From Chitinivibrionales bacterium (GTDB lineage Bacteria > Fibrobacterota > Chitinivibrionia > Chitinivibrionales > WJKA01), in contig JBBRUX010000005.1 of the NCBI GenBank assembly GCA_038247415.1, positions 32,001 through 96,000 on the forward strand: a DNA stretch of 64,000 bases, given 5' to 3'. Each line of letters starts with the position of its first letter. Within the stretch, counting starts at the first letter, position 1. Below, piece by piece: positions 14,859-34,944 of the stretch. The notes under the pieces are model-generated. The model was not told where the DNA came from. It searched no databases and saw only the letters and a program-made list of their open reading frames with translations. The position numbers and the translations under genes were made by a program.

Positions 14859-15870
14859 GTCGAGTAGACACGGGTATTTCAACCCAAGCCTCTCACGGAA
14901 CCGTGCTTGAAAGTCTCCCTTCACACGGCTCTTTTTGACAGACGCAACCTAATAATTAAAACCATACTCCCAATATGGAAACATCTTCGGTTCACTCTCA
15001 ATCACCCGTTTGAGCCAGCCGTAGGCTTTTCCGTAAGTATTCGTTTTGTACTTCTTCCGAGCCCATTTGACAAGATAGGTGTTTAGTCGCCAGAAAACAT
15101 TCCGCAATACTGACGGACTGTATTTCCCATAGTAGTGCAACCAGCTCCTGATCTTGGGTGATAATTCCTTCGATACATCCTTGAGGTCAATTGGCACCCA
15201 ATTCCATATCGAAAGTCTTCTCAATTAATCAAGTATCCGTTTCTGGTTCTTTCTACTTATTGCAGGGAAATATGACCAAAACAACTCGCCACCTTGCTTT
15301 TTGTAAAGCCTCGGCTTGAAGGTATACCCCAGAAAATCAAACTGCCTTGCTACCTCTTTAGGTTCTTTTTGTGACCGTATCGAACAATGACAATACACCA
15401 TCTTTGTCTTCTCTCCATTCAGCTCCAAACCGTACCCTTGCAAGTGCGTCCGTAACCGATCAAGAATAAACTCTGATTGCTCCCAACTTCGTGTATGTAT
15501 CACTATGCCATCTGCATAGCGCTCAAACACTATTCGGGGCTGTGTACTTTGAATCCACAAGTCAAATGCTTCGTGAAGGAACAGATTTGCCAACAGCGGA
15601 ATTAAAACTCCACCTTGCGGGGTACCCTTGTCCGTTTGCGCTGAGAGTCCATCAATTCCAACTCTCTTCCCGCCTCGCTTGACAAGAAACCATGCTTCCC
15701 ATACTTGTCGTTTTGTTATACTTTGCGTCTTTGCCGCTGGTTTCGTCTCTATGCCGTGTACCAATGTGACCAAAACTCAGGTTACTGTCACACTTATCCC
15801 CAAACAGATTAAGAAGTCTGGGTTTCTGATACTGTGAAATTGATTTCGACACCTCGTAAACGGTTTAATT
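14859..15870 (-). mobile_element. Group II intron remnant (bacterial class D-like) with internally deleted, stop-interrupted RT/maturase
   Basis: Minus strand has domain V GAGCCGTGTGAAGGGAGACTTTCAAGCACGGTTC and domain VI ending ...TACTCGAC at 14859. RT motifs VWEAW..VK....GIDG, GTPQGG, LANLFLH, FERYADG, FDFLGY and a domain X (WLHYYG) split by TAA at 15225. Confidence 0.9.
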
Positions 15871-19636: not shown

Positions 19637-19670
19637 TGATAATTGTCAAAAAAAGAAATGTGTGTTTAAA

Positions 19671-19705
19671 AAAAAGGGAAAGACAAGAATTGTCTTTCCC
19701 TTTTT
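19671..19705. terminator. Bidirectional intrinsic terminator
   Basis: Perfect 16-bp stem aaaaagggaaagacaa-gaa-ttgtctttcccttttt between convergent adhE and the cqsA-like operon. Confidence 0.85.
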
Positions 19706-19779: not shown

Positions 19780-20454
19780 TCAGATTTCCCCAATCATAAG
19801 CCCCTTCATCAATTGTAAATATTCTTCTCTCTTGCCATCAAAGTCGACCGGCTTTTGAAAGAACTCAAAAAACCTGCTATGGCGCAATGTCCGATAGAGA
19901 AGATTATTATCGTGCTCGGGATTACCCGTGATGAGAATGAAACGGATATTAGGACGGATTTTATGAACTTCATCGCAGAGCTCATTTCCTCGCATGCCAG
20001 GCATAACTTCATCGGTTATTACAAGTCGCACTTCTGGAGTAACTTTAATGAATTCTAAAGCTTCGAGAGGATCTAAGAATGTTTTTAAATTAAGATCTTT
20101 TGCAAACTTTCGCCTAAAAATAAAGAGATTTTGTTCCTCGTCATCAACATACAGCGCTAGGGGGTTTTCTGTGGGAGAAGGCCCTATTTTTTGTCGTATG
20201 CGGTCAAAAACGAGACCTATTGTTGCATCGTTAAATATTTGAGGCACACAATAGGGCTCTAAATCCAAGCGGCGTCCATCAAAGCGGACTTCAAGCTCAC
20301 GTGCAAATTCAGAAAACGACAAGATGTCAAAGCCATATGCCGTTAGCTTACTATCCTTGTGCAACTCGGAATCGAGCGATTTCAGGTCTTCGTAATCCCC
20401 ACAGATTGTGTCAACCGCAGATTTAATAACTTCGTAGAGGTCAGTGTCTCTCAT
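19780..20454 (-). CDS. Fusion of an ACP-like domain (no canonical Ser) and a receiver (REC) domain
   Basis: N-terminal ~90 aa has the ACP pattern (DSKL.AYGFDILSFSEFARELEVRF..TIG); C-terminal REC intact (YVDDE, ITDEVMPG, ITG, QKP). ATGA overlap with the upstream cqsA-like gene. Confidence 0.75.
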   Translation of the reverse strand: MRDTDLYEVIKSAVDTICGDYEDLKSLDSELHKDSKLTAYGFDILSFSEFARELEVRFDGRRLDLEPYCVPQIFNDATIGLVFDRIRQKIGPSPTENPLALYVDDEEQNLFIFRRKFAKDLNLKTFLDPLEALEFIKVTPEVRLVITDEVMPGMRGNELCDEVHKIRPNIRFILITGNPEHDNNLLYRTLRHSRFFEFFQKPVDFDGKREEYLQLMKGLMIGEI

Positions 20455-21641
20455 AGTGAACGCAAGCCTTTCGGAAATTGCGATGTAATATTGAGCATTT
20501 TGAGGGAATCGATAATCTGCTCTGCCATATATTCAATTTCTTCTTCTGTTATACCAAAATATATTGAAAACCGAGCCAAGCTCGTATTTTCGGGAACTGC
20601 AGGAGGTAAAAAAGCAGAAAAAAGTATTTTTCTTTTTTTAAGCTCGCTATATAATTGACACACCGATTCCACTCCTTTAAACATCAATGATACTATCTGA
20701 CATTTACTCGGACCGGTATCGACGCCTTTTTCATTGAGAAGCTTACGAAGAAGTGCTGCTCTGGCATGCATGGTTATTGCACGCTCTGGTTCGCGCATGA
20801 GAATTTCTAATGCCTTGCAATTTCCGGCAGACGTGGCAGGGGTTGGAGCAGAACTAAAAATAACCGATCGAAGCCGATAGGTTAAATAATGGGCGGTTTG
20901 GATATCTGCAATAATAAAGCCCCCATGACCGCCCAATCCCTTTGCAATACTTACCGTTCGCAAGGGAATGCGTGACGCAAGCCCTTGTTCAACAGCTAAT
21001 CCCCCACCTTTTTCTCCGCATAATCCAAATGAGTGCGCTTCGTCAACAACTAACAAACAGCCAGTTTCTTCGCATATATCCACATATTCATGCAAATTTG
21101 CAACGCTGCCGTTAGTACTATAATACGAATCGACGGCTACAATACCAGGACCAAATGTCTTGACAAATTGACGAAGAGATGCTATGTCATTATGTCGAAG
21201 GGGAATTATCCGACTTCCGGCAAAACGCGCGCCATCCCACAACGATGCATGCGCATAGATATCGAGGTACACGGGAATATCCGGGCTTGCAATTGCTTCT
21301 ATAAGCCCAACATTTGCAGTCCAGCCACAGGTAGTAAGCACAATACTTTCTGGGCCTTCTGCCTGAGCAGATTCAGCAATTTTACGCTGAAAATCGCCAT
21401 GAAAACCACTAAAACCACCATATACGACCGAGGCCATTGCACCAGAACCAGTGAGTTCGGTTGCTTTGTTACGTGCAAGCGTTACTTCTGGATGCGAAGA
21501 AAGTCTCAGGTAGTCATTATGATGACAAGCTATGAATCCGTCGCAATCTTCTGGTTGATCAAAAGGAAATGGATTGAGTGCAGCAAGGCGTCCCATTGTG
21601 GGGATCTTATGTTTTTCAAACCAAACGGGTAGCATCGCCAT
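20451..21641 (-). CDS. cqsA: CqsA/LqsA/JqsA-family alpha-hydroxyketone autoinducer synthase (PLP-dependent alpha-oxoamine synthase fold)
   Basis: NDYLRLSSHP, GWTANVGLI, VYLDIYAHASLWDGAR, RHND, GPGIVAVDSYYST.G, VDEAHS, SIAK. AHxSLWxG, GPGI and DSxYST match CqsA/LqsA as I recall them, not BioF (NHAS, VFSMDG). Confidence 0.82.
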   Translation of the reverse strand: MAMLPVWFEKHKIPTMGRLAALNPFPFDQPEDCDGFIACHHNDYLRLSSHPEVTLARNKATELTGSGAMASVVYGGFSGFHGDFQRKIAESAQAEGPESIVLTTCGWTANVGLIEAIASPDIPVYLDIYAHASLWDGARFAGSRIIPLRHNDIASLRQFVKTFGPGIVAVDSYYSTNGSVANLHEYVDICEETGCLLVVDEAHSFGLCGEKGGGLAVEQGLASRIPLRTVSIAKGLGGHGGFIIADIQTAHYLTYRLRSVIFSSAPTPATSAGNCKALEILMREPERAITMHARAALLRKLLNEKGVDTGPSKCQIVSLMFKGVESVCQLYSELKKRKILFSAFLPPAVPENTSLARFSIYFGITEEEIEYMAEQIIDSLKMLNITSQFPKGLRSL

Positions 21642-21665
21642 CTCGTAATTCCCTTAAAAAAATGT

Positions 21666-22826
21666 TTATACTACTTCTTGAGAAGCAATTTCATAGGCTT
21701 CTACCATGCTGGTACACCCTTGACATCCAATACATCCAGCACTATTTCCAACACCAAAGGATAACCCCCGATGGTGCATTCGTCGAGCAGCCTCCAGATA
21801 CAGCGACACGAGATCATCGAGTGAATGTTTTAGGTAGCTTGGAACCATATTTACAAGATGATTGCTATGAGGACGTACCAAAAGCAGCGTTGTTAGTACC
21901 CCAATAGATGCAAATTCGTCGATGCTTTGTAGAACTTTTTCGTACTTTTCTCCAAAGCCCAGAATACACGTGGTGTTAACAGAATTTTTACCATACGCCG
22001 CAACCGCAGCTTCCCAATTTCTTATATAGTCATCGCGGGAACAGCGCGATTTTCCTGGACAGATTTCTTTGCGAATATCTTCATCGAGGATTTCGAGAAA
22101 AATCCCCAGCGAATCTGCATACTTGGCAGTTTCGGCAATGAGTGACAAATCTTTTACCGGTTCGTGCTGTATATGAACCGAAATGTTCACACGTTCCTTA
22201 ATTTTCTTTACTAAGTCAATAAGTTCACGTACCACGACATCATTATCGGCAAATGTACCAGAAGTAATAGTAAGTGATCGCACTCCCTGTTGCGATGCCA
22301 AAGCTACTGCTTCAACGAATTTATCGATATCTTGTTTGGCTGCCCATTCGTTTATTCCTTTGCCAACCGGCTCAAGTTCACAATAGCGACATTCAAGACC
22401 ATCGGCAAAATGTTTGCATTCGTGGGCATACACCGACACGGCAGTAGCGTAACAATGCGTGCTAATACCTATTTCCATCATTGGTGTACCATCTTTAAGC
22501 GTTGCCCGTAAAAACGAAGGAATCGTTCTGCTTTTAAGCACAGCACCATTTGTTGCCGTTATAATTTTTTTAAGAGAATCATATTCCGATTGGATTGCAT
22601 ATGCCCCAAGCCAATGATCGAGGCCATATATTGGCAAACTTATCATACTCGAAAATTCATTATCCACGGCAGATCGCATATGGAAAGTTTTGCCTTGTGG
22701 ACCCGCACCAGTTCCTTTGGAAATAAAACTGCTGAGGGGAACACCATTTACGGTGGGTGGCGCAATACCCCGAGATTGGAGCTCGAGACGGCGGCGAAAC
22801 TGTGTCATTTGTGGAGAGTTTTGCAT
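21666..22826 (-). CDS. Radical SAM enzyme with CX8CX2C motif (MSMEG_0568-like)
   Basis: CKHFADGLECRYC; TITSGT; DEDIRKEICPGKS; C-terminal AGCIGCQGC. Start placed at ATG 22826 just after the FAAL stop. Confidence 0.78.
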   Translation of the reverse strand: MQNSPQMTQFRRRLELQSRGIAPPTVNGVPLSSFISKGTGAGPQGKTFHMRSAVDNEFSSMISLPIYGLDHWLGAYAIQSEYDSLKKIITATNGAVLKSRTIPSFLRATLKDGTPMMEIGISTHCYATAVSVYAHECKHFADGLECRYCELEPVGKGINEWAAKQDIDKFVEAVALASQQGVRSLTITSGTFADNDVVVRELIDLVKKIKERVNISVHIQHEPVKDLSLIAETAKYADSLGIFLEILDEDIRKEICPGKSRCSRDDYIRNWEAAVAAYGKNSVNTTCILGFGEKYEKVLQSIDEFASIGVLTTLLLVRPHSNHLVNMVPSYLKHSLDDLVSLYLEAARRMHHRGLSFGVGNSAGCIGCQGCTSMVEAYEIASQEVV

Positions 22827-22842
22827 TTTAAAATTCTTTATA

Positions 22843-24501
22843 TCATTTAAAAAGCGTAAGTGAATTGTTAATAAGTCTTTCTTTGATAACTTTACGACGT
22901 TTTTTTCCACTCGATGTCTTCTCGATACTCCCTTTTCCGCAAAAGTAAACATGCGTTAACAAAAGTGCAAAAGATCTGAATATTAAATCCTGAATTTCTT
23001 TACGACGTGCCACTGCATCCGCCGATTCGAGCGGTTTTGTTTCGATAAGCGCATGAAGCTCTGCAACACCCGTTTGAGCATTCTCTAGAGAAAGCACAAC
23101 AGTGCATCCACTGCGAACATTTTCCAAACTTTCGATACACTGCTCGATATCGTCTGGAACAATGTTGCGCCCGCCAATAATAATAAGATCGTCTTTACGG
23201 GAGTGGAAAAAAAGTTCTCCATCATAGGTAAATCCGATATCGTTAGTGCACAGCCAGCCATTTTTAAGTGCCTTTTGAGTCGCCTCCGGATTTTTTAAAT
23301 AACCGGATGTTAAACAAGGGCCTTTTACAAAAATCTCCCCTAAGGCTAAATCTGGCAAAACTTCACCCGCAGTGCTTCGAACTTCAAGCAAAGTACCCTT
23401 AAATGGTTCTCCTATAGAAACAATTTCTAGAGATTCCTTGTCGGATTCATCCGAGAGCGACAGCTTTTCAGATTCGTCTACCCTAACGCGTAGAACCGTT
23501 GCCCCGTCGCTTCGTTTGGTTGAAGTTGCGCCAAGCGCATTTTCGGCCATGCCATAGCCCACGTGAATATGGCGCGATTGCAATTTGTGTTTTGACAACA
23601 AATCTATTGCACGCCGTAAAACAATACCCGTTACTTTTTCTGCACCAAAATACAAATCGAGCCGACTCAAATCGAGAGTGTCTGCCGTGGAATGTCCTAA
23701 AAGCTTAATAGTATGGGCCATTGCCGCGTTGGTTGTAAAATTAAGTCCTGTTTTATGCTCAGCCAACAGCTTAAACCACCTAAGGGGGTTCATCATATAC
23801 CAACGAGGCGAAACAAGAATATTGTCAACACCCTTATATAAAGGAAGCAGAATCCCAATAAAAAGGCCCATGTCATGATTAAAGGGAAGCCAGGATGCAC
23901 AGTGTTTAAGCTCTATCCCCGATGCCAGCGTGTATTCGAACCCAAGCACATCTACTTGGTTTAAAACCATTTGATGAGTCACAATAACACCTTTAGGAAT
24001 TCCCGTGCTTCCCGAAGAATATTGAATAACTGCATACTCACTAGGCGATACGGCAACACGTTCCAGAAAAGGTTTTCCTGTATGTTCTTGCAAATCCTTG
24101 AGCGATATGGCCTGTTTACCGGTGAGCGTACACCATGCTGCGGCCATGGCTTTATCGTCGGCTGTTTCACAAATAATAGTTGCAAATGCGCAACTATGTT
24201 CCACTCTGCCAAGATACTGTTCATAATCTTCGGATAACCCCATTACGGGTCTTAGAGGCACAGCTACTGCACCTAAACGCCAAACAGCTAAAATAATCGT
24301 AACATATTCATGACGATTAGTTAGCAATATACCCACGGTGGATGATTTCCCAACGCCTATTTCTGCAAGGGCGGTAGCATACAAACCAGAAGATTCCCAA
24401 AGATTTGAAAGTTTAAATTCACTTTTCTCTTCTGGAAATTTCCAAACAGGATCATATTTCTGTATGTTTTTTTCTACACTAGCAAGCAATGTATCTTCCA
24501 T
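22843..24501 (-). CDS. Fatty acyl-AMP ligase (FAAL)
   Basis: QYSSGSTGIPKG, SWLPFNHDMGL, FGAE, GYGMAE followed by a FAAL-type insertion, RKDDLIIIGGRN, KTSSGK; RBS AGGA before ATG 24501. Confidence 0.88.
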   Translation of the reverse strand: MEDTLLASVEKNIQKYDPVWKFPEEKSEFKLSNLWESSGLYATALAEIGVGKSSTVGILLTNRHEYVTIILAVWRLGAVAVPLRPVMGLSEDYEQYLGRVEHSCAFATIICETADDKAMAAAWCTLTGKQAISLKDLQEHTGKPFLERVAVSPSEYAVIQYSSGSTGIPKGVIVTHQMVLNQVDVLGFEYTLASGIELKHCASWLPFNHDMGLFIGILLPLYKGVDNILVSPRWYMMNPLRWFKLLAEHKTGLNFTTNAAMAHTIKLLGHSTADTLDLSRLDLYFGAEKVTGIVLRRAIDLLSKHKLQSRHIHVGYGMAENALGATSTKRSDGATVLRVRVDESEKLSLSDESDKESLEIVSIGEPFKGTLLEVRSTAGEVLPDLALGEIFVKGPCLTSGYLKNPEATQKALKNGWLCTNDIGFTYDGELFFHSRKDDLIIIGGRNIVPDDIEQCIESLENVRSGCTVVLSLENAQTGVAELHALIETKPLESADAVARRKEIQDLIFRSFALLLTHVYFCGKGSIEKTSSGKKRRKVIKERLINNSLTLFK

Positions 24502-24520
24502 GTAATTCCTTGGTAAATAT

Positions 24521-24769
24521 CTATGTATGAGCTGCGATAAATGTAGCCAGATCATTTAGTGTCCGTAGTTCCTTAATTACTGTAGCATTAGGAATCGCAA
24601 GCTTGAACTTTTCTTCTACGAGTGCTTGAAGCTGCATAAGCGTCATAGAATCAATCATACAATCTTCAATAAGATCTTTTCCTACAACATCCTTAGCTGG
24701 CTGGTCAAAGAGGTGGTGTTCATCACATAAATTAACAAGTGAGGTGAGTATCTGATCTTTATTTGCCAT
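24521..24769 (-). CDS. Acyl carrier protein
   Basis: 82 aa acidic protein with IDSM phosphopantetheine Ser, VEEKF, TLNDL; RBS GGAG; first gene of the operon. Confidence 0.88.
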   Translation of the reverse strand: MANKDQILTSLVNLCDEHHLFDQPAKDVVGKDLIEDCMIDSMTLMQLQALVEEKFKLAIPNATVIKELRTLNDLATFIAAHT

Positions 24770-24849
24770 TGCACTGCTCCTTAGGAAAAATATGGTTGAA
24801 TGCGCGGGAGATTAACTTTTAGTGAACGAAAATAGATTATTCCCTCTTG

Positions 24850-24878
24850 ATTATACGGGTTTTTGTTTTTTGAGTCAA
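24850..24878 (-). promoter_or_regulatory. sigma70 promoter of the ACP-FAAL-rSAM-cqsA operon
   Basis: Minus strand TTGACT-17 bp-TATAAT, about 80 bp upstream of the ACP start. Confidence 0.75.
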
Positions 24879-24920
24879 TTTATAACTTATAATGTTTGCA
24901 CGCCATGCCTAAAAAGAAAG

Positions 24921-24941
24921 TTATCATGCATGCCATGATAA
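24921..24941. promoter_or_regulatory. Perfect inverted repeat, putative transcription-factor site
   Basis: TTATCATG-N5-CATGATAA located 42 bp upstream of the operon -35 hexamer. Confidence 0.4.
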
Positions 24942-25000
24942 TGGATAACAAATTGATTTTGCTTAGAATGTCAGCTATTCAAGCGTCAACGATGGCCCAA

Positions 25001-26674
25001 TCAATTATCTTCTGGTTCGACCCGGCGAGCACTTGCATACCGCGCAGTGGCTTCTACCGAGGATGTTTCTGAAATCTGTCGCAAGCGGGCTAGTGCTGCA
25101 GGATGTTCGATATTGTACCAGTCGCGTGGCATTAGATCGCTGCTAAAATCATGACAACCTTCAACCATATCAAGGCCGCGTGGAACAACGTCCGGATTAT
25201 TGAGCACTTGCCGACATCGATGCGCATACAGATACACAATAGCATCCATAAGCTTTCCGGGCTTGTGTTTATGCGAAGGCATTTTTTCGAGAAGCTGCTC
25301 AAACAAGCGTGATGCGTTTGCCATGGTTCCCTCATTGAAATACGCATAAATTCCTTGACGTATAGAATCACGGGTTTCGTCTTTGTATGCTACAACTTCA
25401 CGTGCCTGATGTCCGTAAATTTCAAATACCTCAAATTTTTTATGGTATCCCTTAACGCGCAAAATATCAACCATACGAGAATGCTGATCATCCTGAAGAT
25501 CATCCATGACTTCCTGACTCACCACTATTTCTAATCCATACAGTTTTGCTACCGATTCTAGCCGGGAACACACATTGACTGCAGTACCAATCCAAGTACG
25601 ATCATATTTTTTTTCGGAGCCAATATTCGCTTCCAACACAGAACCTTTGGCAATGGCAATTACATTGGCCATTTTAGGCATGCCAGCTATCACAAGTTGC
25701 TTGTTGTAAATTTGCAAACTTTGTCGCATGAGCAGCGCAGCCTCTACCGCTGTTTTACCATCGGGGAAAATTGCCATCACGGCATCACCCATCAGTTTAT
25801 CAACCTCGCCTCCAGCCGAAAACACTGGGTCAATCATCATTTCAAAATATTTATTAAGAAATTGAGCCTGCACATCTGGGTCGGTCATCGATTCGGTAAG
25901 TGGCGTAAAATTTCTCATATCGCAAATGAGAATAGCTTTATCGCTCATGCGAGGCTTAAATTGACGAGGATCTCGGCCTTGATTAACTTCATTAACAACC
26001 GAGGGTCTTACAAACGTTGAAATAATAGCATTGCGAGCAACGAGTTCAGAATTTTTATGTTCAAGCACCAGTTGTCTACGCAGGGCATCTTCGGCTCGTA
26101 GGCGCTCTTTTGTGGTATCCAGCGAAATAACATAAAAGATGTCAAGCGCAAGCTTTATCATGGCAATAACCATAGATGAAAGCCATGCAATTGCGAATGC
26201 TCCTACCATATTGGAGAGCGTGGATACAGCAGATCCTGTTTGTATAAGGTAACTCGCTGCCGCGCAGATAAGGCCAAGAGGAAAAGCAACTACCGAAAAA
26301 TAAACTTTAGAAGAAGTAAATCCATACACAAAACCTGCCCACATCAGCGAGGCATACCAATACTGGTTCATATTGTTATGCATCATGAGGTTTGCAAATA
26401 CAAACGGGAACATAAAAACAAGCGCTGCTTCCCAATACACTTTATGCCATGTTTGAAATGGAGAGTTTTTGGGAAAAAATACGAAAGGGATAGTGATCGC
26501 AACAATAATCAACCGGAGCAACAAATCTTCGTGATAGCCCAGATAAAATTTACAAATCAGATAAAAGAGCATGTTTGAGAGCGGAGCAATTACACCCATA
26601 AAGAAGGCAAACTTCTCGGTAGTATAAAATTTGGGAGAGCGGGTGATCCCAATGGCAGTTTTAAGATAATCCAT
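25001..26674 (-). CDS. Membrane adenylate cyclase (class III) with a CqsS/LqsS-like 6-TM sensor domain
   Basis: Six hydrophobic segments with YHEDLLLR and FPFVFANLMMHN...WYAS; coiled coil; cyclase motifs ICDMRNFT, VDKLMGDAVM, YDRTWIGTAVNVCSRLES. Start placed at ATG 26674. Confidence 0.82.
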   Translation of the reverse strand: MDYLKTAIGITRSPKFYTTEKFAFFMGVIAPLSNMLFYLICKFYLGYHEDLLLRLIIVAITIPFVFFPKNSPFQTWHKVYWEAALVFMFPFVFANLMMHNNMNQYWYASLMWAGFVYGFTSSKVYFSVVAFPLGLICAAASYLIQTGSAVSTLSNMVGAFAIAWLSSMVIAMIKLALDIFYVISLDTTKERLRAEDALRRQLVLEHKNSELVARNAIISTFVRPSVVNEVNQGRDPRQFKPRMSDKAILICDMRNFTPLTESMTDPDVQAQFLNKYFEMMIDPVFSAGGEVDKLMGDAVMAIFPDGKTAVEAALLMRQSLQIYNKQLVIAGMPKMANVIAIAKGSVLEANIGSEKKYDRTWIGTAVNVCSRLESVAKLYGLEIVVSQEVMDDLQDDQHSRMVDILRVKGYHKKFEVFEIYGHQAREVVAYKDETRDSIRQGIYAYFNEGTMANASRLFEQLLEKMPSHKHKPGKLMDAIVYLYAHRCRQVLNNPDVVPRGLDMVEGCHDFSSDLMPRDWYNIEHPAALARLRQISETSSVEATARYASARRVEPEDN

Positions 26675-26833: not shown

Positions 26834-28027
26834 ATGATAAACTTTGATACTATGAACTCAGAAACCATCCTTGATTTATTTGATGTTGAACCAATAAACG
26901 AAAAACGCATATCTGAACGTGCATTTCTTACCGTTGCGGTCACCCTTGAAATTGGGGATCGGCTTGTACGCGGCGTCGAATGCAAAAACGTCAGTCTTGG
27001 CGGTATGTTCCTAATTTCGAAGGTTCATATTCCCCTTGGAAGCGTTGGAACAGTTACTCTTACAAAACGCTGCGATAAAAAAAGAGTGAGCTTTTCTGCC
27101 GATTTTGAAGTCGTACGTCACGAAGGAGAAACAAAAGAAGATATTGGGCTTGGCCTTAAATTTATTCGACTTACCGATGAAGATAGACTTGCAGTCGAAT
27201 TCATTGTTGATTTCCGCACGGGTGTAACCCTTCGGGAACGATTAGATTTGTCGGAAGAGAAAATTTCGGACATCCGCTTTAAAATTGCGCAAACCCAAGA
27301 AGAACTAGCTGGAGCATTTTCACTTGTTCACGATTCCTATGTAACGCGAGGTTACATGGATCCCGACCCAAGCGGTATGCGCTTGAGCATCCACCACGCC
27401 ATGCCTCTAACAACAGTTGTTATTGGCGTTCAAAACAATCGAGTTATTGCTGCTTCGGCACTTTTTTTAGACTCCCCCATTGGCTTGCCCATGGACAATC
27501 TTTACAAGAGAGAGCTTTCTGAATTTCGCCAAAACAGGCGACTCATAGCAGAAATTGGGGCATTTGCCGTTCACCAAGATTTGCGAGCATTTACAACAAC
27601 ACTCGTGCTGCATCTTCAAAAGCTGATGTTTTTATACACCTTTAGATACCTGAATCTCGATGATATTGTTTTGGTAATAAACCCGCGACACAAGCTTTAT
27701 TATCAACATGTCTTATTAGCCAACCAAATTGGGCCCGAGCGCGTTTACCAAAAGGTAAAAGGAAATCCGGCCATTGCCATGTCGATGGATGTTCGCAAAG
27801 CACAAGATCGTTTTAAAGAAAGCTATTCTACCCTACCCGACAATAAAAACTTGCATCGCTTTTTTTACGAACATACAAGCGAATGCCTACAAATGCCTGA
27901 ACTTCGTCAGCCTATTGTCACGTGGAATCGCGCATTGCTGCATTATTTTTTCGAAGAACGGTCGAAACTTTTCGAGACAACAAGCGCCGATACCATAAAA
28001 TTTATTCTTAGCCATTACGAGAATTAA
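26834..28027 (+). CDS. PilZ domain fused to an N-acyl amino acid synthase (FeeM/NAS GNAT-fold)
   Basis: PilZ: RISER (RxxxR) and NVSLGG. NAS: FKIA...AFSLVHDSY..RGY, DSPIGLP.D, AEIGAFA, INPRHKLYY, PAIAM. Confidence 0.78.
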   Translation: MINFDTMNSETILDLFDVEPINEKRISERAFLTVAVTLEIGDRLVRGVECKNVSLGGMFLISKVHIPLGSVGTVTLTKRCDKKRVSFSADFEVVRHEGETKEDIGLGLKFIRLTDEDRLAVEFIVDFRTGVTLRERLDLSEEKISDIRFKIAQTQEELAGAFSLVHDSYVTRGYMDPDPSGMRLSIHHAMPLTTVVIGVQNNRVIAASALFLDSPIGLPMDNLYKRELSEFRQNRRLIAEIGAFAVHQDLRAFTTTLVLHLQKLMFLYTFRYLNLDDIVLVINPRHKLYYQHVLLANQIGPERVYQKVKGNPAIAMSMDVRKAQDRFKESYSTLPDNKNLHRFFYEHTSECLQMPELRQPIVTWNRALLHYFFEERSKLFETTSADTIKFILSHYEN

Positions 28028-28028
28028 T

Positions 28029-28811
28029 ATGTCAACTGCAACAAGTGCTGGTTACGTTTCTGCCGACTATCTCAAAGCACTTGCGCAGGCAGCAGAACCC
28101 ATAAAAAAGCGCATACGAGATTTGCTTGCGCTAGGCTCCAACTCAAAAATTCTTGATGCGGGCTGTGGTCCTGGCACCGATACTATTCCTTTAGCACGTT
28201 TACTGAATAATTCGGGCATAATTTGTGGCATGGATGCCGATAGATCTATGATTCAAGCCGCGCAAACCCGCATACAAGTAGAATGGTTCCAAAATCTTTA
28301 TCATTATGTCGCTAACGCCACTGCAATTCCTTGCAAAACCAACAGTTTTGATGCAGCATTTTGTGATCGGGTATTACAACACATTAAAGATGCTCATAAC
28401 GCAGTCGCCGAAATGTGTCGTATAGTAAAGCCTGGTGGGAAAATTGTACTTGTCGATTCAGATCATTCCTCACTGAGCATTTCGACAAATAATTCATCAA
28501 CAGAATGTGCATTGCGAACCTGGAGAACTCAAAGATTACACAATGGCCTCGCTGCTCGTAATCTTGGCACCTATGCAATTAAAGCAGGGCTATTACTAGA
28601 AAGTATAGAGTGCATCCCTTTTCTATCTCGCAGCTATGCAGGATTTAGGCTCGGAACAGCTGCAGATCTTGTTGAGCAAGAAGCCGTTACACGAGGGATT
28701 ATATCGTCCGATCAATTAGATTCATATAAATCTGACCTGGAAGATCTCGATCGCGCCAATGCATTTTATTCTGTAATTCCTATGATAATACTCTCAGCAA
28801 CTAAACCGTAA
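28029..28811 (+). CDS. Class I SAM-dependent methyltransferase (UbiE-like)
   Basis: ILDAGCGPG, GMDAD, NATAIP...SFDA, DRVLQH, RIVKPGG. Confidence 0.88.
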   Translation: MSTATSAGYVSADYLKALAQAAEPIKKRIRDLLALGSNSKILDAGCGPGTDTIPLARLLNNSGIICGMDADRSMIQAAQTRIQVEWFQNLYHYVANATAIPCKTNSFDAAFCDRVLQHIKDAHNAVAEMCRIVKPGGKIVLVDSDHSSLSISTNNSSTECALRTWRTQRLHNGLAARNLGTYAIKAGLLLESIECIPFLSRSYAGFRLGTAADLVEQEAVTRGIISSDQLDSYKSDLEDLDRANAFYSVIPMIILSATKP

Positions 28812-28818
28812 TACAAAC

Positions 28819-29217
28819 GTGAACCAAAACACAACAATTCAAACGACTATTCAGATTGCAGTGAGGCATCCAGAATCTGCATCTGCGCTAATGGCTAAAA
28901 CTTTTGCAGCGCATTTCGATGGTGCACAGTGGATAGATCGTGAGATGCGACTCCAATTTTGTATCTTATTTTTGGGCAATTTAATCGATAGCAATATCGA
29001 AGAATCTGTTGGTGCGGCTCTTATAGACCGGTTAGAGGCTCGATCTCTTGAATTTGGAATGCGAATGCTTAAGCGCAATCCTGATACAGGACTAAAAATT
29101 CTCATTGTTCTCATAATGAAAGAACTAAGAACCCGCCAAAAGTTCGAATCAGAAGAGCAAATGTCATTCTATAAAGAAATCCTTGCTCGCTTTTTCCCCG
29201 AAATTAATTCTCACTAA
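28819..29217 (+). CDS. Hypothetical protein (helical)
   Basis: 132-aa ORF tightly following the methyltransferase; no family recognised. Confidence 0.55.
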   Translation: MNQNTTIQTTIQIAVRHPESASALMAKTFAAHFDGAQWIDREMRLQFCILFLGNLIDSNIEESVGAALIDRLEARSLEFGMRMLKRNPDTGLKILIVLIMKELRTRQKFESEEQMSFYKEILARFFPEINSH

Positions 29218-29332: not shown

Positions 29333-31616
29333 ATGAATGATGCAAACCTTCGTGGTACCACCGTGGCTCCTGAATTGGAATGGCATAGCAATCCGATGTT
29401 GCGCAATGTGTCAAAACGCATTGTTCAGCCCATGATCAGATATCTTGACGCTGAATTTGGTACTACCATTACGAATCAAATTATTGCCGAAAGTGATCAT
29501 GATCGTGATTTTTTTGAAGATGTTTATGGATTTATGCCCATTGAAACCACCGAGAAAATGTTTGCGAGTGCAATCCGCATAACTGATAACCCCGACTTCG
29601 CCTACAAAATGGGAAAAGAAATCTGGAAATACACTCCAACAATTCAAGCCCTTCTTGGAATAACCGTAGCTACCCCTTCTTTGCTTTTTGAGAATATGAA
29701 CAACATCGAAGGAAAAGCCGTACGTACAACAATAGTTGACACTCAAAAATTTGGGGCTTCCAAATATAGGCTTAGCATTAGCTTTAGGGGCGGCTTTGTG
29801 GAACCAGCCAATGCATGCCGTAATAGGCATGGAACCTACGAATCGGCCACACAAATGTTCGGTTTACCACCATCCAAAGTTGAGCACCCCCAGTGCCGAT
29901 TTAGAGGCGACGATCACTGCGTGTACGATATTACCGTCCCTGAACAATCATTTTTTATTTATCAAAAAATTTCGTTTATAATTGGCTTTTTGGGTTTGGT
30001 AGGCTTTGGTCTCTTTGCACTTTTGCACTCCCCTATTCTTGCAATAGTTGGAAGTCTTTGCATCCCGTTAGCGCTCGGTTCGTACCTCTTTTTCTTGAGA
30101 TCGCGCCTTACCGCAAATTTACGGTGGATTGCAAATGCAAAGCATTCAATTGAGGAGAATAGCAAAGATGTTTTAACTGAAATGAATCGCACGAAACATT
30201 TGCATGAGCTTACAAGCAACCTCAATAGCTGCTTATCTCCCCTATCTGTCGCGAAAGCAGCAACACATTCCCTTACCCACGATTTCAATTACGGCTCTGG
30301 GCAAGTTTGGCTTCTTAAAGACGACGACTCCCTTATGTGTACAGCAACATCTGGGTTAGCACAAAATCTTGAAGCCTCGGTGAAAAGTATTTCGTATTCC
30401 ATATCCGAGGGAATGAATCGCCCCGAAAGCTTTATTGCACATGTTATAGGCCGTAAAGAAATTCTCCTCATTAATGATGTTAAGACAAGTACACAAACCT
30501 TCATTGCACCCACTCAAGATTTGCTCCAATTGATCAATCCATCATCCTTTATTATTGTGCCGACTGCTTTGCTTTATTATTGTGCCGATTCTCGAAAAAA
30601 ACAAAGCAGTCGGCATGATCATTGGCGCAAACCATGAGGCTGGTGTTCAAGTAAAATATCTGGATCGTGTTATTTTCGAAGCACTTACGCTTGTCGTTTC
30701 AACAACATTGGCAAAGGCCAAAGTCTTTGAAAGCATGGAACGAAAACTCGAAAAAAGAAAGCAACTCTTGCGCGATCGTCAAGATGAATTGCTTATAGCC
30801 CGAAAGATATCAATTCAAAACGAAAAGGTCTCTGCGCTGGGGGAAATGGCCGCAGGCGTTGCGCACGAGATTAACAATCCGCTTAATTTCCTTGTTAATA
30901 TAGTAAGCGAGCTCGAACGAGACACAAAAGGGTTGCATGAAATAGCTGCACTCGGTAACACGTTTGCACCACAAAACATTCGCCATGAAATCGATAAAAT
31001 CTTTGTCGATTACAACCTTGCCGAGCGCATCACTGAATCGGACTATGTTTACACGCTCATCCGACAATCTCTTGCCCGTGCACAGAAAACGGTGAGTAGT
31101 CTGCGCATTTTTGCGCGCCAAGCCGGTAACGATGGAGTAAAACCCGAACCATTGTGCGAATTGATTCGTAGTGCATTCGAGATTATTCCACAAAAATATC
31201 GAGCAGATGTAACCCTTACGTGCGAGCTTGGTTCAGAGTGCGCGGTGCATGTTAATCGTATAGAATTCTCTCAGATAATTATTAATATCCTTACCAATTC
31301 CATAGAAGCCATGAATGGCAAAGGATCAATAAAAATTGACTTAGAAGAAACAAATCGATCTCATCTGGTTTCAATTTCAGATACTGGTTGCGGGGTTCCT
31401 CCCGAAAATAGAGCACTTATTTTTAAAGCCTTTTTTACCACACAAAATAAAGAACAGCATACCGGCTTAGGGCTTACGGTTGCGCTGGAACTTTCTCATA
31501 AAAATGGCGGTACTATCGAACTCGCACAAAAGCAACCCACTCTGGGAGCATGCTTTATAATTACTATACCTAAACCGTTCAAACCTTCGGCAGAGCTGGA
31601 TGCCCATGCCGCTTAA
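29333..31616 (+). pseudogene. V4R-like sensor-2TM-GAF-histidine kinase, frameshifted by a 25-nt insertion
   Basis: First ORF has V4R-type ACRN..G...HPQCRFRGDDHCVY, TM helices and the start of a GAF domain; second ORF has the GAF end, H-box AHEINNPL and N/G boxes. Deleting 25 nt at a 17-bp duplication gives one 752-aa ORF. Confidence 0.78.
30547..30588 (+). repeat. 17-bp direct repeat (ctttattattgtgccga x2, 8-nt spacer)
   Basis: Copies at 30547-30563 and 30572-30588 coincide with the kinase frameshift. Confidence 0.9.
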
Positions 31617-33312
31617 AAAAGGATTGCTTAAAAAAATTGCTGCATCAACTGCTATTATACTGGCTTTGATAATTATTTGCATATCCATTTTCTCTCATCT
31701 GACGTTGTGGTGGGGAACAGCCGAATTCTTTTTATGTATTGGCTTATTTATTATTATCTTCGATTGGCATGATCGTAGTTCGCTTCTCATGAAACAAAGC
31801 AATGCTAAAACAATCGAATTAGAACAAACTCATAATAGCCTCGTTCGTGCCAATGAGCACATTGTTGCCCTTCATGGTTTTTCTCAACAAATAACCGGAT
31901 GTGAAACTATACAATCGGTCTGCCACACCGTTACAACCGCACTTGTAAATAGTTTTTCATACGATGCGAGTATTTTTTGGCTCTGGGATAACACTCACAA
32001 CAAGCTTATGGCAATTTCTGCGGCAGGCAATATCCCTGCTCTAATAGACCTTCCTGATACGCTTACCCAACATGATGGCCTCTTGGAATCAGTGATGCGC
32101 TCAAAGCAAACCGTGCTCATTCGACGTCGCGAAGAAAAATCAAACGATAAAAATAACGAAAAAATAAAACTTCTCGAAAGCGTTGGTCTCTATTCTGTTG
32201 TGGTAACCCCGCTCATGCACGAAAACGAGATTCTTGGGGTTCTCTTGGCAGGTTTTCAGGAAATTCAAAGTATGGATACTCACGATGCAAAGGTCATCGA
32301 ATCGTTGCTCAACACAGCATCGGATCGTATGGCTAAAGGCCAGCTCGAGCTACTTGACGAAAAAGAAGAATCCGTTTTCAATTCGGTCTCTAACCTTGCA
32401 GGTAATGCCCTTGCGCGAGTAATCATGTTTTCGAGCATGGAAGCTCAAATTGAAAAGCGTGCCAAAGAGCTAACCTTAACCCACGAAAAACTTGCTCAAA
32501 CACGAGAAATAATCATTCAGGTCGAGAAGCTTTCATCTCTTGGGAAAATGGCTGCGGGCGTTATTCACGAAATCAACGACCCACTCAATTTTCTTGTTAA
32601 TATTTTGCCCGATCTTAAGCGCGACTTCGAGGGGCTCACACACATCAAAACGTTGCTGCTCACCCCAGACTGCCCTGCGGATTTAAAACAGAAAGTTCAA
32701 AACATTGTTGACGAGTACGAACTCGAATCTCATTTGGAAGAGCTGGACTTTATTTTTTCTCGAGCATCCGATGCACTAGGCAAAAGCTCTCGCATTGCTT
32801 CCGGGTTGCAGGTCTTTTCCCAAGGCGGCAAATCGGTGTCGAAATCATCAGATCTTATTGCGCTGGTTACCCAAACGCTCGAGCTTATTCCTCGCAAAAC
32901 CAAAGGGGATATCGCCATACATCTCGATCCTGCTTCCGAAATACTATGGGAAGTAAACCCCGATAGATTTTCCCAGGTTTGCATGAATCTCATTATCAAT
33001 GCACTAGATGCCATGAATGGGCAAGGCACATTAACCATTGCTGGAACATCTTCTGGTACACAGGCCCACATAAGCTTTTCAGATGATGGACCAGGCATTC
33101 CCCTAGCCATCCAGAAAAAAATCTTCGATCCCTTTTTCACAACAAAGCCTGCCGGAAAAAGTACGGGACTTGGGCTTACTATCTGCGCTGAAATCGTGCG
33201 TGATTATGGTGGCCGATTTGAAATCGATTCTGCACCCGGTACAGGAACCCGTTTCACCATATATTTCTCAGAAGAACAGCGCACAGCATTTAATCTGGCG
33301 CTTCCCGTATAA
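31600..33312 (+). CDS. Membrane sensor histidine kinase (2TM-GAF-HisKA-HATPase)
   Basis: IHEINDPL H-box, NLIINALDA, DDGPGI, FDPFFTTK, GTGLGL-type G2 box; paralogous to the upstream kinase. Confidence 0.9.
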   Translation: MPMPLKKGLLKKIAASTAIILALIIICISIFSHLTLWWGTAEFFLCIGLFIIIFDWHDRSSLLMKQSNAKTIELEQTHNSLVRANEHIVALHGFSQQITGCETIQSVCHTVTTALVNSFSYDASIFWLWDNTHNKLMAISAAGNIPALIDLPDTLTQHDGLLESVMRSKQTVLIRRREEKSNDKNNEKIKLLESVGLYSVVVTPLMHENEILGVLLAGFQEIQSMDTHDAKVIESLLNTASDRMAKGQLELLDEKEESVFNSVSNLAGNALARVIMFSSMEAQIEKRAKELTLTHEKLAQTREIIIQVEKLSSLGKMAAGVIHEINDPLNFLVNILPDLKRDFEGLTHIKTLLLTPDCPADLKQKVQNIVDEYELESHLEELDFIFSRASDALGKSSRIASGLQVFSQGGKSVSKSSDLIALVTQTLELIPRKTKGDIAIHLDPASEILWEVNPDRFSQVCMNLIINALDAMNGQGTLTIAGTSSGTQAHISFSDDGPGIPLAIQKKIFDPFFTTKPAGKSTGLGLTICAEIVRDYGGRFEIDSAPGTGTRFTIYFSEEQRTAFNLALPV

Positions 33313-33509: not shown

Positions 33510-33734
33510 ATGAACGCCCTTAAAAAAAAGCTTATTAAACGTGCAACACAAGCGTACAAACACATTTATCCCTGTACCAACAAACGATCTCTCTACGAAT
33601 GTTTTACCTCCGAAGGAGAGCGACTGCTTTTCTGGTTTAATACCGCTGATAATAATACGCATCTTCTTATAGGAGATATGAAACCTGTCCAACAATTTGC
33701 ACGTCAAGCTTATCACTCTTCCACGTACACGTAG
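33510..33734 (+). CDS. Small hypothetical protein
   Basis: 74 aa; strong RBS AGGAGG; preceded by a sigma54-like promoter. Confidence 0.65.
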   Translation: MNALKKKLIKRATQAYKHIYPCTNKRSLYECFTSEGERLLFWFNTADNNTHLLIGDMKPVQQFARQAYHSSTYT

Positions 33735-33765
33735 CCGATTGTATGGTTGGATGTATTTTTCTTGC

Positions 33766-34944
33766 ATGAATCAAAAAACGATTTCTTCCATTGATATTTT
33801 TTCTCACGTTATCGATAATTTTGGTGATGCAGGTGTCGCACTACGATTAGCCAGTGAGCTCTCGTACCGGATAGCACATCACCCTATCCGCTTATTTACC
33901 GATGCATACGAACTCACCAACCGACTTCTTGGCGAAACATGTATTTGCGTAAACAACGCAGGTGCAAATTTGAGCATTCACCCTTGGACTTCTACCACGT
34001 GCTGGAACGACCTCACGCCAGCAGATTTGATTATTGAAACGTTTGGGTGCGACATTCCCACTGAGTACCTAAAAAAAGCCTATGTGCGTGGCGGGGTCTG
34101 GTTTAACCTCGAATATCTTTCGGCAGAAAGCTGGATAGAAGAGTGCCACCTTGGAGAATCGCTGCTGGATTCTGGCTCATTGCGAAAATTCTTTTTTATG
34201 CCAGGATTTACAAAAGCAACAGGAGGGCTCATTACCCGTGCGATAAAACTGACTTCACCACACACCGCTGTGCCCAATGCAGCTCGGGCAGTGCGCACTT
34301 TCGCCCAATCGTATGGATATACGCCAACCGAACCAGAATTCATTGGTTTCCTCTTTTGTTATGACTTTGAACATGCTTCCTTTTTTGATGCATTAGTAAA
34401 TTACCCGACACGCATTCTACTTATTGCCTGCGGAGATCAAGCTCATGAAGCAGTAAAAAACAACATGAAACAAGGAGTGAGGGAAACGAATTTTCTCATT
34501 CACGAAAAAAACCTAACGGTGCTTCTTGCGCCTTTTGTAAATCAAGCTTCATTCGATACGCTCATTGCAGGCTCAGATTTTGCACTTATCCGTGGAGAAG
34601 ATTCTCTTGCACAAGCAGTTCTTGCCCACGTCCCTTGTATCTGGGATATTTACAAACAAGAGCGATCGGTACATACTAAAAAGCTTATTGCATTTCTCGA
34701 CCGAATAAAGCCGTTTTTTGCAGACCAACTCATTTTTACTGGGTACCAAGAACTCATGCACCAGTATAACAGCGATAGCGATCTTACTACCACTCTGCAA
34801 TGGATCTGGTTTTTAAATAACCTGAGCCCGCTCAAACAATCCGCAGTCGAGTTTGCGAGCTACCTCAATAAAAATTGCAATCTATGCGATCAAATGCTAT
34901 TTTATGCGACTCAATTTTTAAACCAGTCAAGGGAGCATTCATGA
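33766..34944 (+). CDS. earP: EF-P arginine rhamnosyltransferase
   Basis: DIFSHVIDNFGDAGVALRLA, IETFGC, NLEYLSAESW, FFMPGF...TGGL, IRGEDS, WDIY.Q; overlaps efp. Confidence 0.92.
   Translation: MNQKTISSIDIFSHVIDNFGDAGVALRLASELSYRIAHHPIRLFTDAYELTNRLLGETCICVNNAGANLSIHPWTSTTCWNDLTPADLIIETFGCDIPTEYLKKAYVRGGVWFNLEYLSAESWIEECHLGESLLDSGSLRKFFFMPGFTKATGGLITRAIKLTSPHTAVPNAARAVRTFAQSYGYTPTEPEFIGFLFCYDFEHASFFDALVNYPTRILLIACGDQAHEAVKNNMKQGVRETNFLIHEKNLTVLLAPFVNQASFDTLIAGSDFALIRGEDSLAQAVLAHVPCIWDIYKQERSVHTKKLIAFLDRIKPFFADQLIFTGYQELMHQYNSDSDLTTTLQWIWFLNNLSPLKQSAVEFASYLNKNCNLCDQMLFYATQFLNQSREHS

Follow-up and report, generated by a model that had tools for sequence, protein, structure and literature searches.

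A CqsA-like synthase operon beside a natural CqsS-type sensor-cyclase in a Chitinivibrionales genome: a candidate lipid-signal circuit with predicted cyclic AMP output

Introduction

The closest described relatives of the locus reported here are the alpha-hydroxyketone quorum-sensing systems. In Vibrio, the CqsA/CqsS pair consists of a pyridoxal phosphate (PLP)-dependent alpha-oxoamine synthase, which uses acyl-coenzyme A (acyl-CoA), encoded beside a six-helix membrane sensor whose output passes through HisKA-HATPase-REC domains. In Legionella (LqsA-LqsR-LqsS/LqsT) and Janthinobacterium (JqsA/JqsS/JqsR) the sensors are also histidine kinases, and a response regulator gene accompanies the synthase gene. 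Here we analyse a locus in a 64,000-nucleotide stretch of a Chitinivibrionales genome of the phylum Fibrobacterota (assembly GCA_038247415.1, contig JBBRUX010000005.1, positions 32,001 to 96,000; hereafter the window), in which a synthase of the same superclade as CqsA stands beside a six-helix membrane sensor homologous to CqsS. The host genome is a sediment metagenome-assembled genome (MAG) of 3.84 Mb in 99 contigs, 96% complete.

Compared with the Vibrio pair, the window synthase belongs to a sister clade of CqsA and scores under the CqsA family cut-off. It is preceded by genes for a dedicated acyl carrier protein (ACP), a fatty acyl-AMP ligase-like adenylating enzyme (FAAL) and a variant radical S-adenosylmethionine (SAM) enzyme, it is translationally coupled to a receiver protein with a serine-less ACP-like domain, and the sensor ends in a class III cyclase, predicted to make cyclic AMP (cAMP), instead of a kinase transmitter. 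With the Legionella and Janthinobacterium systems the locus shares a receiver-domain gene accompanying the synthase, and it differs from them in that their sensors are histidine kinases whereas the window sensor is a cyclase. We read the locus as a variant of the alpha-hydroxyketone (CqsA/CqsS, LqsA/LqsS) lipid-signal circuit with cAMP output, a reading to which we assign a probability of roughly 0.55; the homology of the parts and their pairing are well supported by sequence comparison.

Fusions of this kind have been engineered. CAI-1 regulates cAMP synthesis by the CqsS-Rv1625c chimera (Beltz, Bassler and Schultz 2016, PMC4821796), and a CqsS-AC2 chimera by Seth et al. is cited in a 2025 review (PMC12414865), the accessible text of which cites synthetic CqsS-cyclase chimeras only. 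In the cluster analysis of 2016, the CqsS cluster holds sensory histidine kinases only and cyclase anchors match it locally only (PMC4821796). The window protein resembles the chimeras in joining a CqsS-type six-helix receptor to a class III cyclase domain, and it differs from them in being a natural fusion, in having a catalytic domain nearest to OaPAC, bPAC and CyaB, and in having a synthase gene adjacent to it.

The locus was first picked out by a sequence-only reading, which proposed a new quorum-sensing system and knew of no described system with this architecture. Our literature searches, with most subscription journals outside their scope, likewise yielded no such description, and they returned neither a natural CqsS-type cyclase nor a CqsA-FAAL operon. 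Three points on which that reading depended were checked computationally, namely the grouping of the synthase, the nature of the transmembrane domain and the co-occurrence of the genes, and we find that the synthase groups with CqsA, that the membrane domain is similar to CqsS, and that core members of the gene set occur together elsewhere in the phylum.

Results

The synthase is a sister of CqsA

Upon comparing the window synthase with the NCBIfam models, we found that the CqsA model NF005526 ranks first (294.7 bits, cut-off 428), followed by bioF (231, cut-off 426), serine palmitoyltransferase (SPT; 207, cut-off 640) and Kbl (176, cut-off 460), all of these scores lying below the respective cut-offs. 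Across 10 other members of its clade that were scanned, the CqsA model was alone in reaching E<=1e-75, with 284-319 bits; as references, V. campbellii CqsA scores 697 bits and a Streptomyces cqsA 508 bits on the same model. The synthase is 32% identical to V. campbellii CqsA, and its PLP lysine K234, together with H131, D200 and H203, is invariant across 37 relatives. Relatives are numerous at 42-70% identity, and they are often labelled CAI-1 autoinducer synthase by JGI and generic aminotransferase by NCBI; one of them, P0103 (59% identical), is assigned by NCBI to the cultured species Chitinispirillum alkaliphilum.

We placed the synthase in an IQ-TREE tree of 59 rows, comprising 31 clade rows, 5 CqsA references, 7 SPT, 6 BioF-like and 10 other sequences; Kbl, ALAS and LqsA references are not among the rows, and the rows called BioF-like score 362-406 against the bioF cut-off of 426. 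The CqsA references and the window clade are joined with support 100/100, the references alone with 100/99 and the window clade alone with 99/99, and a branch of length 1.0 (support 100/100) parts the synthase from the BioF-like and SPT rows. Within this tree, which has no Legionella LqsA among its references, the synthase is the sister of the 5-reference CqsA clade and stands outside it. Identification as BioF, SPT or Kbl is ruled out by the profile scores together with the tree placement (no Kbl rows in the tree).

Judged by sequence, the synthase is an enzyme that resembles the CqsA type yet lies outside the curated CqsA family, and because it falls below the cut-off and outside the CqsA clade, its substrates and product may differ from those of CqsA. 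The chemistry implied by the earlier label 'CAI-1-type' is therefore presumptive for a sister clade below the family cut-off. A second comparison concerns the carrier protein-dependent alpha-oxoamine synthases of lipid and natural-product pathways, such as bacterial SPT with its ACP and acyl-ACP synthetase, which resemble the window in having genes for an ACP and an adenylating enzyme alongside the synthase; fused AMP-binding/PP-binding/aminotransferase proteins of 1063-1221 aa are found in two loci (L075 and L086; loci and genomes are designated by L and G numbers). These synthases group with SPT-like and 'other' rows, far from the window clade, in the IQ-TREE tree, and unlike the window synthase they have no adjacent sensor or receiver genes in the loci examined.

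The same genome contains a second synthase on contig 17 (L004 7746-9615, minus strand), which is 52% identical to that of the window, has its own receiver protein and adjoins a flavodoxin/4Fe-4S protein and a flavin amine oxidase.

A CqsS-type six-helix domain is fused to a class III cyclase

In the sensor-cyclase, a helical linker joins the N-terminal CqsS-type six-helix domain to the class III cyclase domain, after which a helical tail of ~140 aa forms the C-terminus. Five hydrophobic segments exceed the hydropathy threshold (residues 24-40, 51-67, 83-99, 128-144 and 157-173), and a sixth membrane segment at ~106-122 is aromatic-rich and falls below it. When the window protein is compared by BLASTP with V. 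campbellii CqsS, whose sequence was taken from the record containing its cqsA, the two match at E 2e-4 and are co-linear at the N-terminus; the family profile, built from the phmmer relatives described below, matches the same protein at residues 24-166 with E 1.5e-18 (66.4 bits). It also matches the HisKA-HATPase genes that immediately follow cqsA, with 78.2 bits in Cupriavidus and 70.0 bits in Ralstonia. The CqsS-like character of the sensor, proposed from the letters alone, is borne out at the level of homology. These profile matches place the membrane domain within the CqsS sensor family, and a class III cyclase domain here takes the place of the HisKA-HATPase transmitter.

We searched 1.84 billion representative sequences with the N-terminal 235 residues using phmmer and obtained 94 relatives; this exhaustive search was required, as a word-indexed search with the sensor domain returned just 2 relatives besides the window protein. 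V. campbellii CqsS matches many of the 94, and its top match (79.8 bits) is itself a cyclase (P0085). The output domains were scanned in 74 relatives, the 20 omitted being mostly short (105-380 aa), and comprise histidine kinase in 33, class III cyclase in 18, GGDEF in 8, SpoIIE in 3, and a Ser/Thr kinase, a receiver only and an Hpt only in 1 each, with 9 relatives having no Pfam domain. On this tally the CqsS-type six-helix domain turns out to be a widely reused input module.

Full-length orthologues of the sensor-cyclase, at 47% identity, are found in two genomes of the same order. The nearest solved relatives of the catalytic domain are the photoactivated adenylyl cyclases OaPAC (81.2 bits) and bPAC, and also CyaB. 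Alignment to OaPAC (5x4t) shows that the metal-binding Asp (LICDMRNF), the Lys with the second metal Asp (KLMGD) and the Asn and Arg (AVNVCSRLE) are retained, and that the adenine-side Asp of OaPAC is replaced by Thr. This Lys/Thr pair at the substrate positions presumably denotes ATP specificity, and the domain is accordingly predicted to be an adenylate cyclase. The genome contains 10 matches to cyclic nucleotide-binding (cNMP-binding) domains and 3 class III cyclases. In a profile search of the whole genome, the window cyclase was the sole member of the six-helix family.

Synthase, receiver protein and sensor recur together in Fibrobacterota

To describe the neighbourhoods of the synthase, all clade loci were placed in a FastTree tree with neighbour annotation, in which three subclades, A, B and C, are distinguished; L108, L109 and L110 were left out of this tree with synthase scores under the 250-bit threshold. 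Subclade A numbers 14 loci: the window, its contig-17 paralogue, L021-L026, L032 and L103-L105, plus G049 and G048, two genomes of the same order that are absent from the tree and were added on the basis of 58% identity. The counts given for subclade A cover the contig stretches available, and several loci without a six-helix protein have less than 1 kb upstream of the synthase.

Within these limits, a receiver protein lies within 2.5 kb of the synthase at 13 of the 14 subclade A loci, and the contig of the fourteenth stops 232 nt after the synthase. A six-helix protein is present at half of the loci (7/14), six times with a cyclase domain and once cut by the contig end, a GAF kinase at 6/14, and an ACP with an AMP-ligase at 3/14, one of the two relatives among these also having a B12-type radical SAM enzyme. 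In the basal subclade C (7 loci), a six-helix HisKA-HATPase-REC hybrid kinase stands beside the synthase in 4 (L039, L041, L047, L048). The sequence-only reading had staked its claim on the set of genes co-occurring elsewhere; this holds for the synthase, the receiver protein and the sensor-cyclase, which stand together in other Fibrobacterota, and fails for the exact set of six, which we found nowhere else. Since a sensor partnership is common to canonical CqsA and the basal subclade C, the simplest reading is that this partnership is ancestral and that the output was swapped to a cyclase in subclade A.

Two of the metagenome contigs left out of the tree (L108 279-4013 and L110 5311-8520) encode an MMPL-type transporter domain fused to a CqsA-like synthase domain, in proteins of 1245 and 1070 aa respectively, and in both a six-helix HisKA-HATPase-REC-Hpt hybrid kinase is found a few kb downstream of the fusion.

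We additionally surveyed 296 genomes of the phylum, which are mutually related, so that the counts are not independent. A synthase of the clade was found in 14 genomes and a match to the sensor query in 24 (including G253, flagged unpublished); both were present in 8, the synthase only in 6 and the sensor only in 16, so that the sensor matched in 8/14 genomes with the synthase clade and in 16/282 without it. The 6 synthase-only genomes all belong to family f18 and appear to correspond to the subclade C loci, the kinase-type sensor of which is found by the profile and not by the single-protein query. None of the 16 sensor-only genomes, among which is G253, has a clade synthase at E<=1e-80; in one of them, G050 (97% complete), the sensor domain is matched at 40% identity (G050:C194:62717-63412), and the 16 may represent receptor 'solos' that listen to the signals of others.

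These 16 genomes bear on the suggestion that the proximity of cyclase and synthase in the window is coincidental and that the cyclase senses an unrelated cue, as does the finding that in G048 the cyclase is on a different contig from the synthase. Against that suggestion, the window genome, of 3.84 Mb, has a single six-helix protein, which is separated by 3.4 kb from one of the two synthases, and cyclase-synthase adjacency recurs in L023, L024, L025, L103, L105 and G049, with adjacency to a kinase-output sensor in the four subclade C loci named above. We consider mere coincidence very improbable.

Subclade B calls for a different consideration. None of its 17 loci has a sensor (0/17) or a receiver protein, and upon examining the annotated loci (n=3) we observed that two of them, L027 from a Methylococcales MAG and L038 from Pseudomonas sp. 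2835, both carry a FAAL, a short-chain dehydrogenase and DUF1254/DUF1214 genes; further genes there encode an ACP, a fatty acid desaturase and an adenosine phosphosulfate (APS) kinase in L038, and a sulfotransferase in L027. By gene content subclade B looks like lipid biosynthesis rather than signalling, the product of L027 and L038 may be a sulfated amino-lipid, and membership of the clade alone therefore does not imply signalling. Furthermore, bacterial sphingolipid synthesis follows a pattern in which an ACP and an adenylating enzyme are encoded next to an alpha-oxoamine synthase. Rather than cell-to-cell signalling, the locus could on this evidence serve a pathway to a membrane lipid or secondary metabolite, regulated in its own right, in which the synthase would make an amino-ketone lipid from an ACP-bound acyl chain in the manner of SPT, the kinases and receiver protein would adjust its synthesis, and the cyclase would report the lipid level or membrane state within the same cell. 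However, the sensor domain is one that binds a diffusible autoinducer in Vibrio and is encoded beside cqsA in three other genera, the tree places the synthase with CqsA rather than with SPT, and subclade A is without the reductase and sulfotransferase genes of the lipid-type subclade. We regard a lipid pathway as an unlikely but serious alternative to the signal circuit.

A receiver protein with a serine-less ACP-like domain

The receiver protein is composed of an N-terminal ACP-like domain (residues 1 to ~95) and a C-terminal receiver domain, in which D104, D105, D148, T176 and K201 are invariant in 14 relatives. The position of the phosphopantetheine serine is occupied by Ile44 in the ACP-like domain and by I, L, F, Q and other residues in the 14 relatives, with no conserved Ser. 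A true carrier protein is therefore ruled out for this domain, and the earlier description of the gene as an ACP fused to a receiver does not stand.

The likeness to carrier proteins lies in the profile and in the predicted order of the helices. The PP-binding match is weak (E 0.15, 12.8 bits), with hhalign the domain aligns in the correct register to ACPs of the same genome (E 0.006), and in the AlphaFold model (pLDDT 87.4) helices at residues 3-18, 44-57, 66-74 and 79-90 precede the receiver domain in the order of a carrier protein. A Foldseek search with the whole model returned matches to the receiver domain only and none to the ACP-like domain. The LqsR structure 6sy9 is among these matches (rank 7, E 5.1e-7), and the sequence match to it is weak (E 0.0012), which points to the receiver domain in general and gives no sign of orthology. 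In LqsR the receiver domain is N-terminal and followed by a second domain of a different type, whereas in the window protein the ACP-like domain precedes the receiver domain.

When the domain was docked on the synthase dimer, the predicted complex obtained an ipSAE of 0.64, compared with 0.00 for the best of 3 controls, a mark attained by 116 of 157 solved complexes and by 2 of 215 mismatched pairs in the calibration of the tool, from which the present set-up (dimer plus domain, own alignments) differs. At least 91% of contacts are shared between runs, the partner pLDDT is at least 81, and the model places residues 43-45, 48 and 64-76 of the receiver protein, including the pseudo D-S-L motif, on residues 128-149 and 346-351 of the synthase; such a docking may echo the model's memory of solved carrier protein-enzyme complexes. 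On the strength of this prediction we read the ACP-like domain as a carrier-protein mimic that would bind the synthase, and the receiver protein as a putative regulator of the synthase. The predicted docking is equally compatible with homeostatic feedback in a lipid pathway as set out above.

Two GAF histidine kinases belong to the conserved neighbourhood

The inventory of six genes given by the sequence-only reading is correct for the operon region and passes over two GAF histidine kinases, encoded on the plus strand beyond the cyclase, that are conserved neighbours of the synthase. The first is split into two open reading frames (ORFs; 29333-30637 and 30555-31616) by a tandem duplication of 25 nt at 30547-30571, and the frame change is visible in tblastn; whole homologues, of 733-864 aa, adjoin the synthase in L022, L023, L032, L145 and L146. 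Among the three sequencing runs whose contigs cover the site, the duplication is present in X2 and absent from X1 and X3, and it is thus a polymorphic or assembly variant. A fixed pseudogene is ruled out, since the contigs of two of the three covering runs are without the duplication. The second kinase is a paralogue without the N-terminal domain, aligning to residues 224-731 of the L023 kinase, and in L145 and L146, too, the first kinase is followed by a similar second one.

For the N-terminal domain of the first kinase, the AlphaFold model has a pLDDT of 57.1 (5 sequences), and Atlas clusters offer V4R (12% of one cluster) and DUF2378 (11% of another) as leads only; a V4R-like Cys-x7-Cys motif is kept as a lead as well. 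GAF domains that bind cAMP are known from cyanobacterial cyclases, and by analogy the GAF domains of the two kinases may bind cAMP.

Operon structure and the ACP-FAAL-radical SAM cassette

The six co-oriented genes are present on the minus strand at 19780-26674 as first described, with the internal starts that the description implied (Table 1). In the ORF list, coordinates and sequence, the gaps between the ACP, FAAL, radical SAM, synthase and receiver genes are 19, 16, 24 and -4 nt, and the TTGACT-17-TATAAT site and the terminator are where they had been placed. The cyclase gene is followed by a gap of 231 nt, within which the promoter-like site is found 81 nt upstream of the ACP start. The region shows no excess of such sites overall (20 compared with 17.5 +/- 4.0 in shuffles), and we therefore regard this one as a plausible predicted promoter. 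The terminator hairpin was identified by reading the sequence and folding, having been overlooked by an automated scan; since a run of A flanks it on one side and a run of T on the other, it may also end the plus-strand gene adhE.

Table 1. Features of the locus; positions refer to the window, and + and - denote its strands.
Feature	Position	Strand	Description
Sensor-cyclase	25001-26674	-	557 aa; start at M39 of the listed ORF; Guanylate_cyc 33.5 bits
Six-helix (6TM) sensor domain	26105..26674	-	Residues 1 to ~190 of the cyclase
Class III cyclase catalytic domain	25424..25945	-	Alignment to solved cyclases
Sigma-70-like promoter TTGACT-17-TATAAT (predicted)	24878..24850	-	11/12 matches; top site of the region
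Acyl carrier protein (ACP)	24521-24769	-	82 aa; PP-binding 31.4 bits; serine motif IDSM intact
Fatty acyl-AMP ligase-like adenylating enzyme (FAAL)	22843-24501	-	552 aa; AMP-binding 171 bits and DIP2-like C-terminal domain
Variant radical SAM enzyme	21666-22826	-	386 aa; start at M43 of the listed ORF; Radical_SAM 42.2 bits
PLP-dependent alpha-oxoamine synthase	20451-21641	-	396 aa; Aminotran_1_2 99.6 bits
Receiver protein	19780-20454	-	224 aa; Response_reg 37.6 bits
Intrinsic terminator	~19668-19705	-	16-pair hairpin, then T8; fold -22.3 kcal/mol
GAF histidine kinase	29333..31616	+	N-terminal domain of no recognised family, two predicted membrane helices, GAF, HisKA, HATPase
Second GAF histidine kinase	31600..33312	+	570 aa; GAF_2 36.1 bits, HATPase_c 86.3 bits

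Upon closer examination of the cassette that precedes the synthase, we found that the best NCBIfam models of the ligase mix CoA-ligase and FAAL subfamilies, all below cut-off, with PRK07768 at 272 bits and the fatty acyl-AMP ligase PRK09192 at 262.5 bits. The adjacent ACP favours reading it as a putative FAAL. The radical SAM enzyme exceeds the Pfam cut-off for Radical_SAM and remains below the cut-offs of its NCBIfam models (TIGR04043 132.9 bits; variant_rSAM 113.9, cut-off 125). It is without the canonical CxxxCxxC spacing, and it has C-x8-C-x2-C and a C-terminal CxxCxxC in common with its one relative in the 296 genomes of the phylum, a 49%-identical protein of G068; a metagenome scan with the radical SAM protein found no relative.

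The nearest genomic relative of the FAAL (456 bits) is also found in G068, beside an ACP, and the gene order there is ACP, FAAL, methyltransferase, radical SAM, with no synthase. This cluster (L129, G068:C20:117500-137400) holds the only close relative of the window cassette in the phylum survey. It is long and co-oriented, and it includes methyltransferases, two radical SAM genes, an SRPBCC cyclase, a thiamine pyrophosphate (TPP) enzyme, the ACP and FAAL, a cysteine desulfurase-rhodanese, a glycosyltransferase, a UbiA prenyltransferase and a polyprenyl synthase. Because the sole relative sits in a different cluster without a synthase, the ACP-FAAL-radical SAM cassette is, in terms of gene neighbourhood, a portable module. 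Across the loci examined, a FAAL-type ligase and a variant radical SAM enzyme beside a synthase of the window subclade were found in the window only.

The operon could accordingly be a mosaic, in which the cassette is a mobile starter-unit module serving another product and the synthase uses ordinary acyl-CoA, as CqsA does. In keeping with such a mosaic, 11 of the 14 subclade A loci show no ACP or ligase in the stretches available, and a gene for a PilZ-FeeM N-acyl amino acid synthase lies nearby. On the other side, cassette and synthase are bound together by gaps of 16 and 24 nt and by having one promoter and one terminator, and two relatives reach the arrangement with other enzymes: in G048, ACP, AMP-ligase and synthase are contiguous on one strand, and in G049 the order on one strand is cyclase, ACP, AMP-ligase, radical SAM, as in the window. 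The radical SAM enzyme of G049 is of the B12-binding type, and in both genomes the ligase is non-orthologous to that of the window, so that the function would have been recruited more than once. We judge the mosaic quite improbable; the operon structure and the runs of G048 (ACP-ligase-synthase) and G049 (ACP-ligase-radical SAM) favour a cassette that feeds the synthase.

Other genes in the window

Divergent from the cyclase, the stretch 26834-29217 on the plus strand encodes the PilZ and FeeM-type N-acyl amino acid synthase fusion (397 aa), a class I methyltransferase (260 aa) and a 132-aa ORF without a family; no homologue of the fusion was seen in loci L021-L049. At 15225-15773 on the minus strand, a 182-aa ORF matches just the C-terminal part of the reverse transcriptase domain RVT_1 (62.8 bits) and is perhaps a group II intron or retron fragment. 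Finally, at 33697-35501 on the plus strand, a gene for the rhamnosyltransferase EarP (289.6 bits) is followed by that for elongation factor P (EF-P), the usual pairing for EF-P rhamnosylation.

Discussion

What was computed for this locus are homologies, conserved gene neighbourhoods and intact catalytic residues; from these we infer the product, its role as the ligand of the cyclase, its action between cells, the part played by the cassette, the binding of cAMP by the GAF domains and the feedback. In the circuit that we propose, the acyl chain is in this genome probably supplied by the three genes upstream of the synthase: the FAAL would activate a fatty acid and transfer it to the dedicated ACP, and modification of the chain would fall to the variant radical SAM enzyme. 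The CqsA-sister synthase would then condense an amino donor with the acyl chain, and the lipophilic product would be sensed in the membrane by the genome's only CqsS-type six-helix sensor, whose fusion to a class III adenylate cyclase would make cAMP the output. The conserved GAF histidine kinases and the receiver protein would form the next arm. The serine-less ACP-like domain would dock where the acyl chain enters the synthase, and signal synthesis could thereby be gated by phosphorylation through the receiver protein, which would close a feedback loop.

Several of the observations reported above weigh against a signal circuit: the synthase lies under the CqsA cut-off and outside the clade of CqsA references, the contig-17 synthase and receiver protein have no sensor of their own in a genome with one six-helix protein, subclade B is free of sensors and lipid-like in content, 16 genomes have the sensor domain and no clade synthase, cyclase and synthase are on separate contigs in G048, the cassette stands without any synthase in G068, and the docking is subject to the model's possible memory of solved complexes and to a set-up other than the calibrated one. 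Set against these, the recurrence of synthase, receiver protein and sensor, and the presence of a CqsS-family domain beside a CqsA-allied enzyme, lead us to retain the alpha-hydroxyketone-type circuit as our reading. Rather doubtfully, we also propose a specific chain of events within it, namely that the lipid autoinducer binds the CqsS-type anchor and sets the level of cAMP, that the GAF kinases read cAMP and phosphorylate the receiver protein, and that the carrier mimic of the latter plugs the acyl entrance of the synthase. If this chain is true, autoinducer synthesis would be controlled directly at the protein level, and the one-protein pathway of CqsS would be split into a sensor-cyclase, a second messenger, a kinase and a regulator.

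The receptor role of six-helix cyclase anchors has been in question since at least 2016 and is called a 'blind spot' in the 2025 review (PMC12414865), and the main bacterial evidence for such anchors as receptors is the artificial CqsS-cyclase chimera (PMC4821796). A natural CqsS-cyclase fusion beside a gene for the likely ligand synthase offers a testable pair of an orphan cyclase and a candidate ligand. The locus further suggests a new form of regulation of an autoinducer synthase, through a response regulator with a carrier-protein mimic. Overall, if our reading of the circuit is true, it would extend alpha-hydroxyketone-type signalling to the Fibrobacterota, with cAMP as its output.

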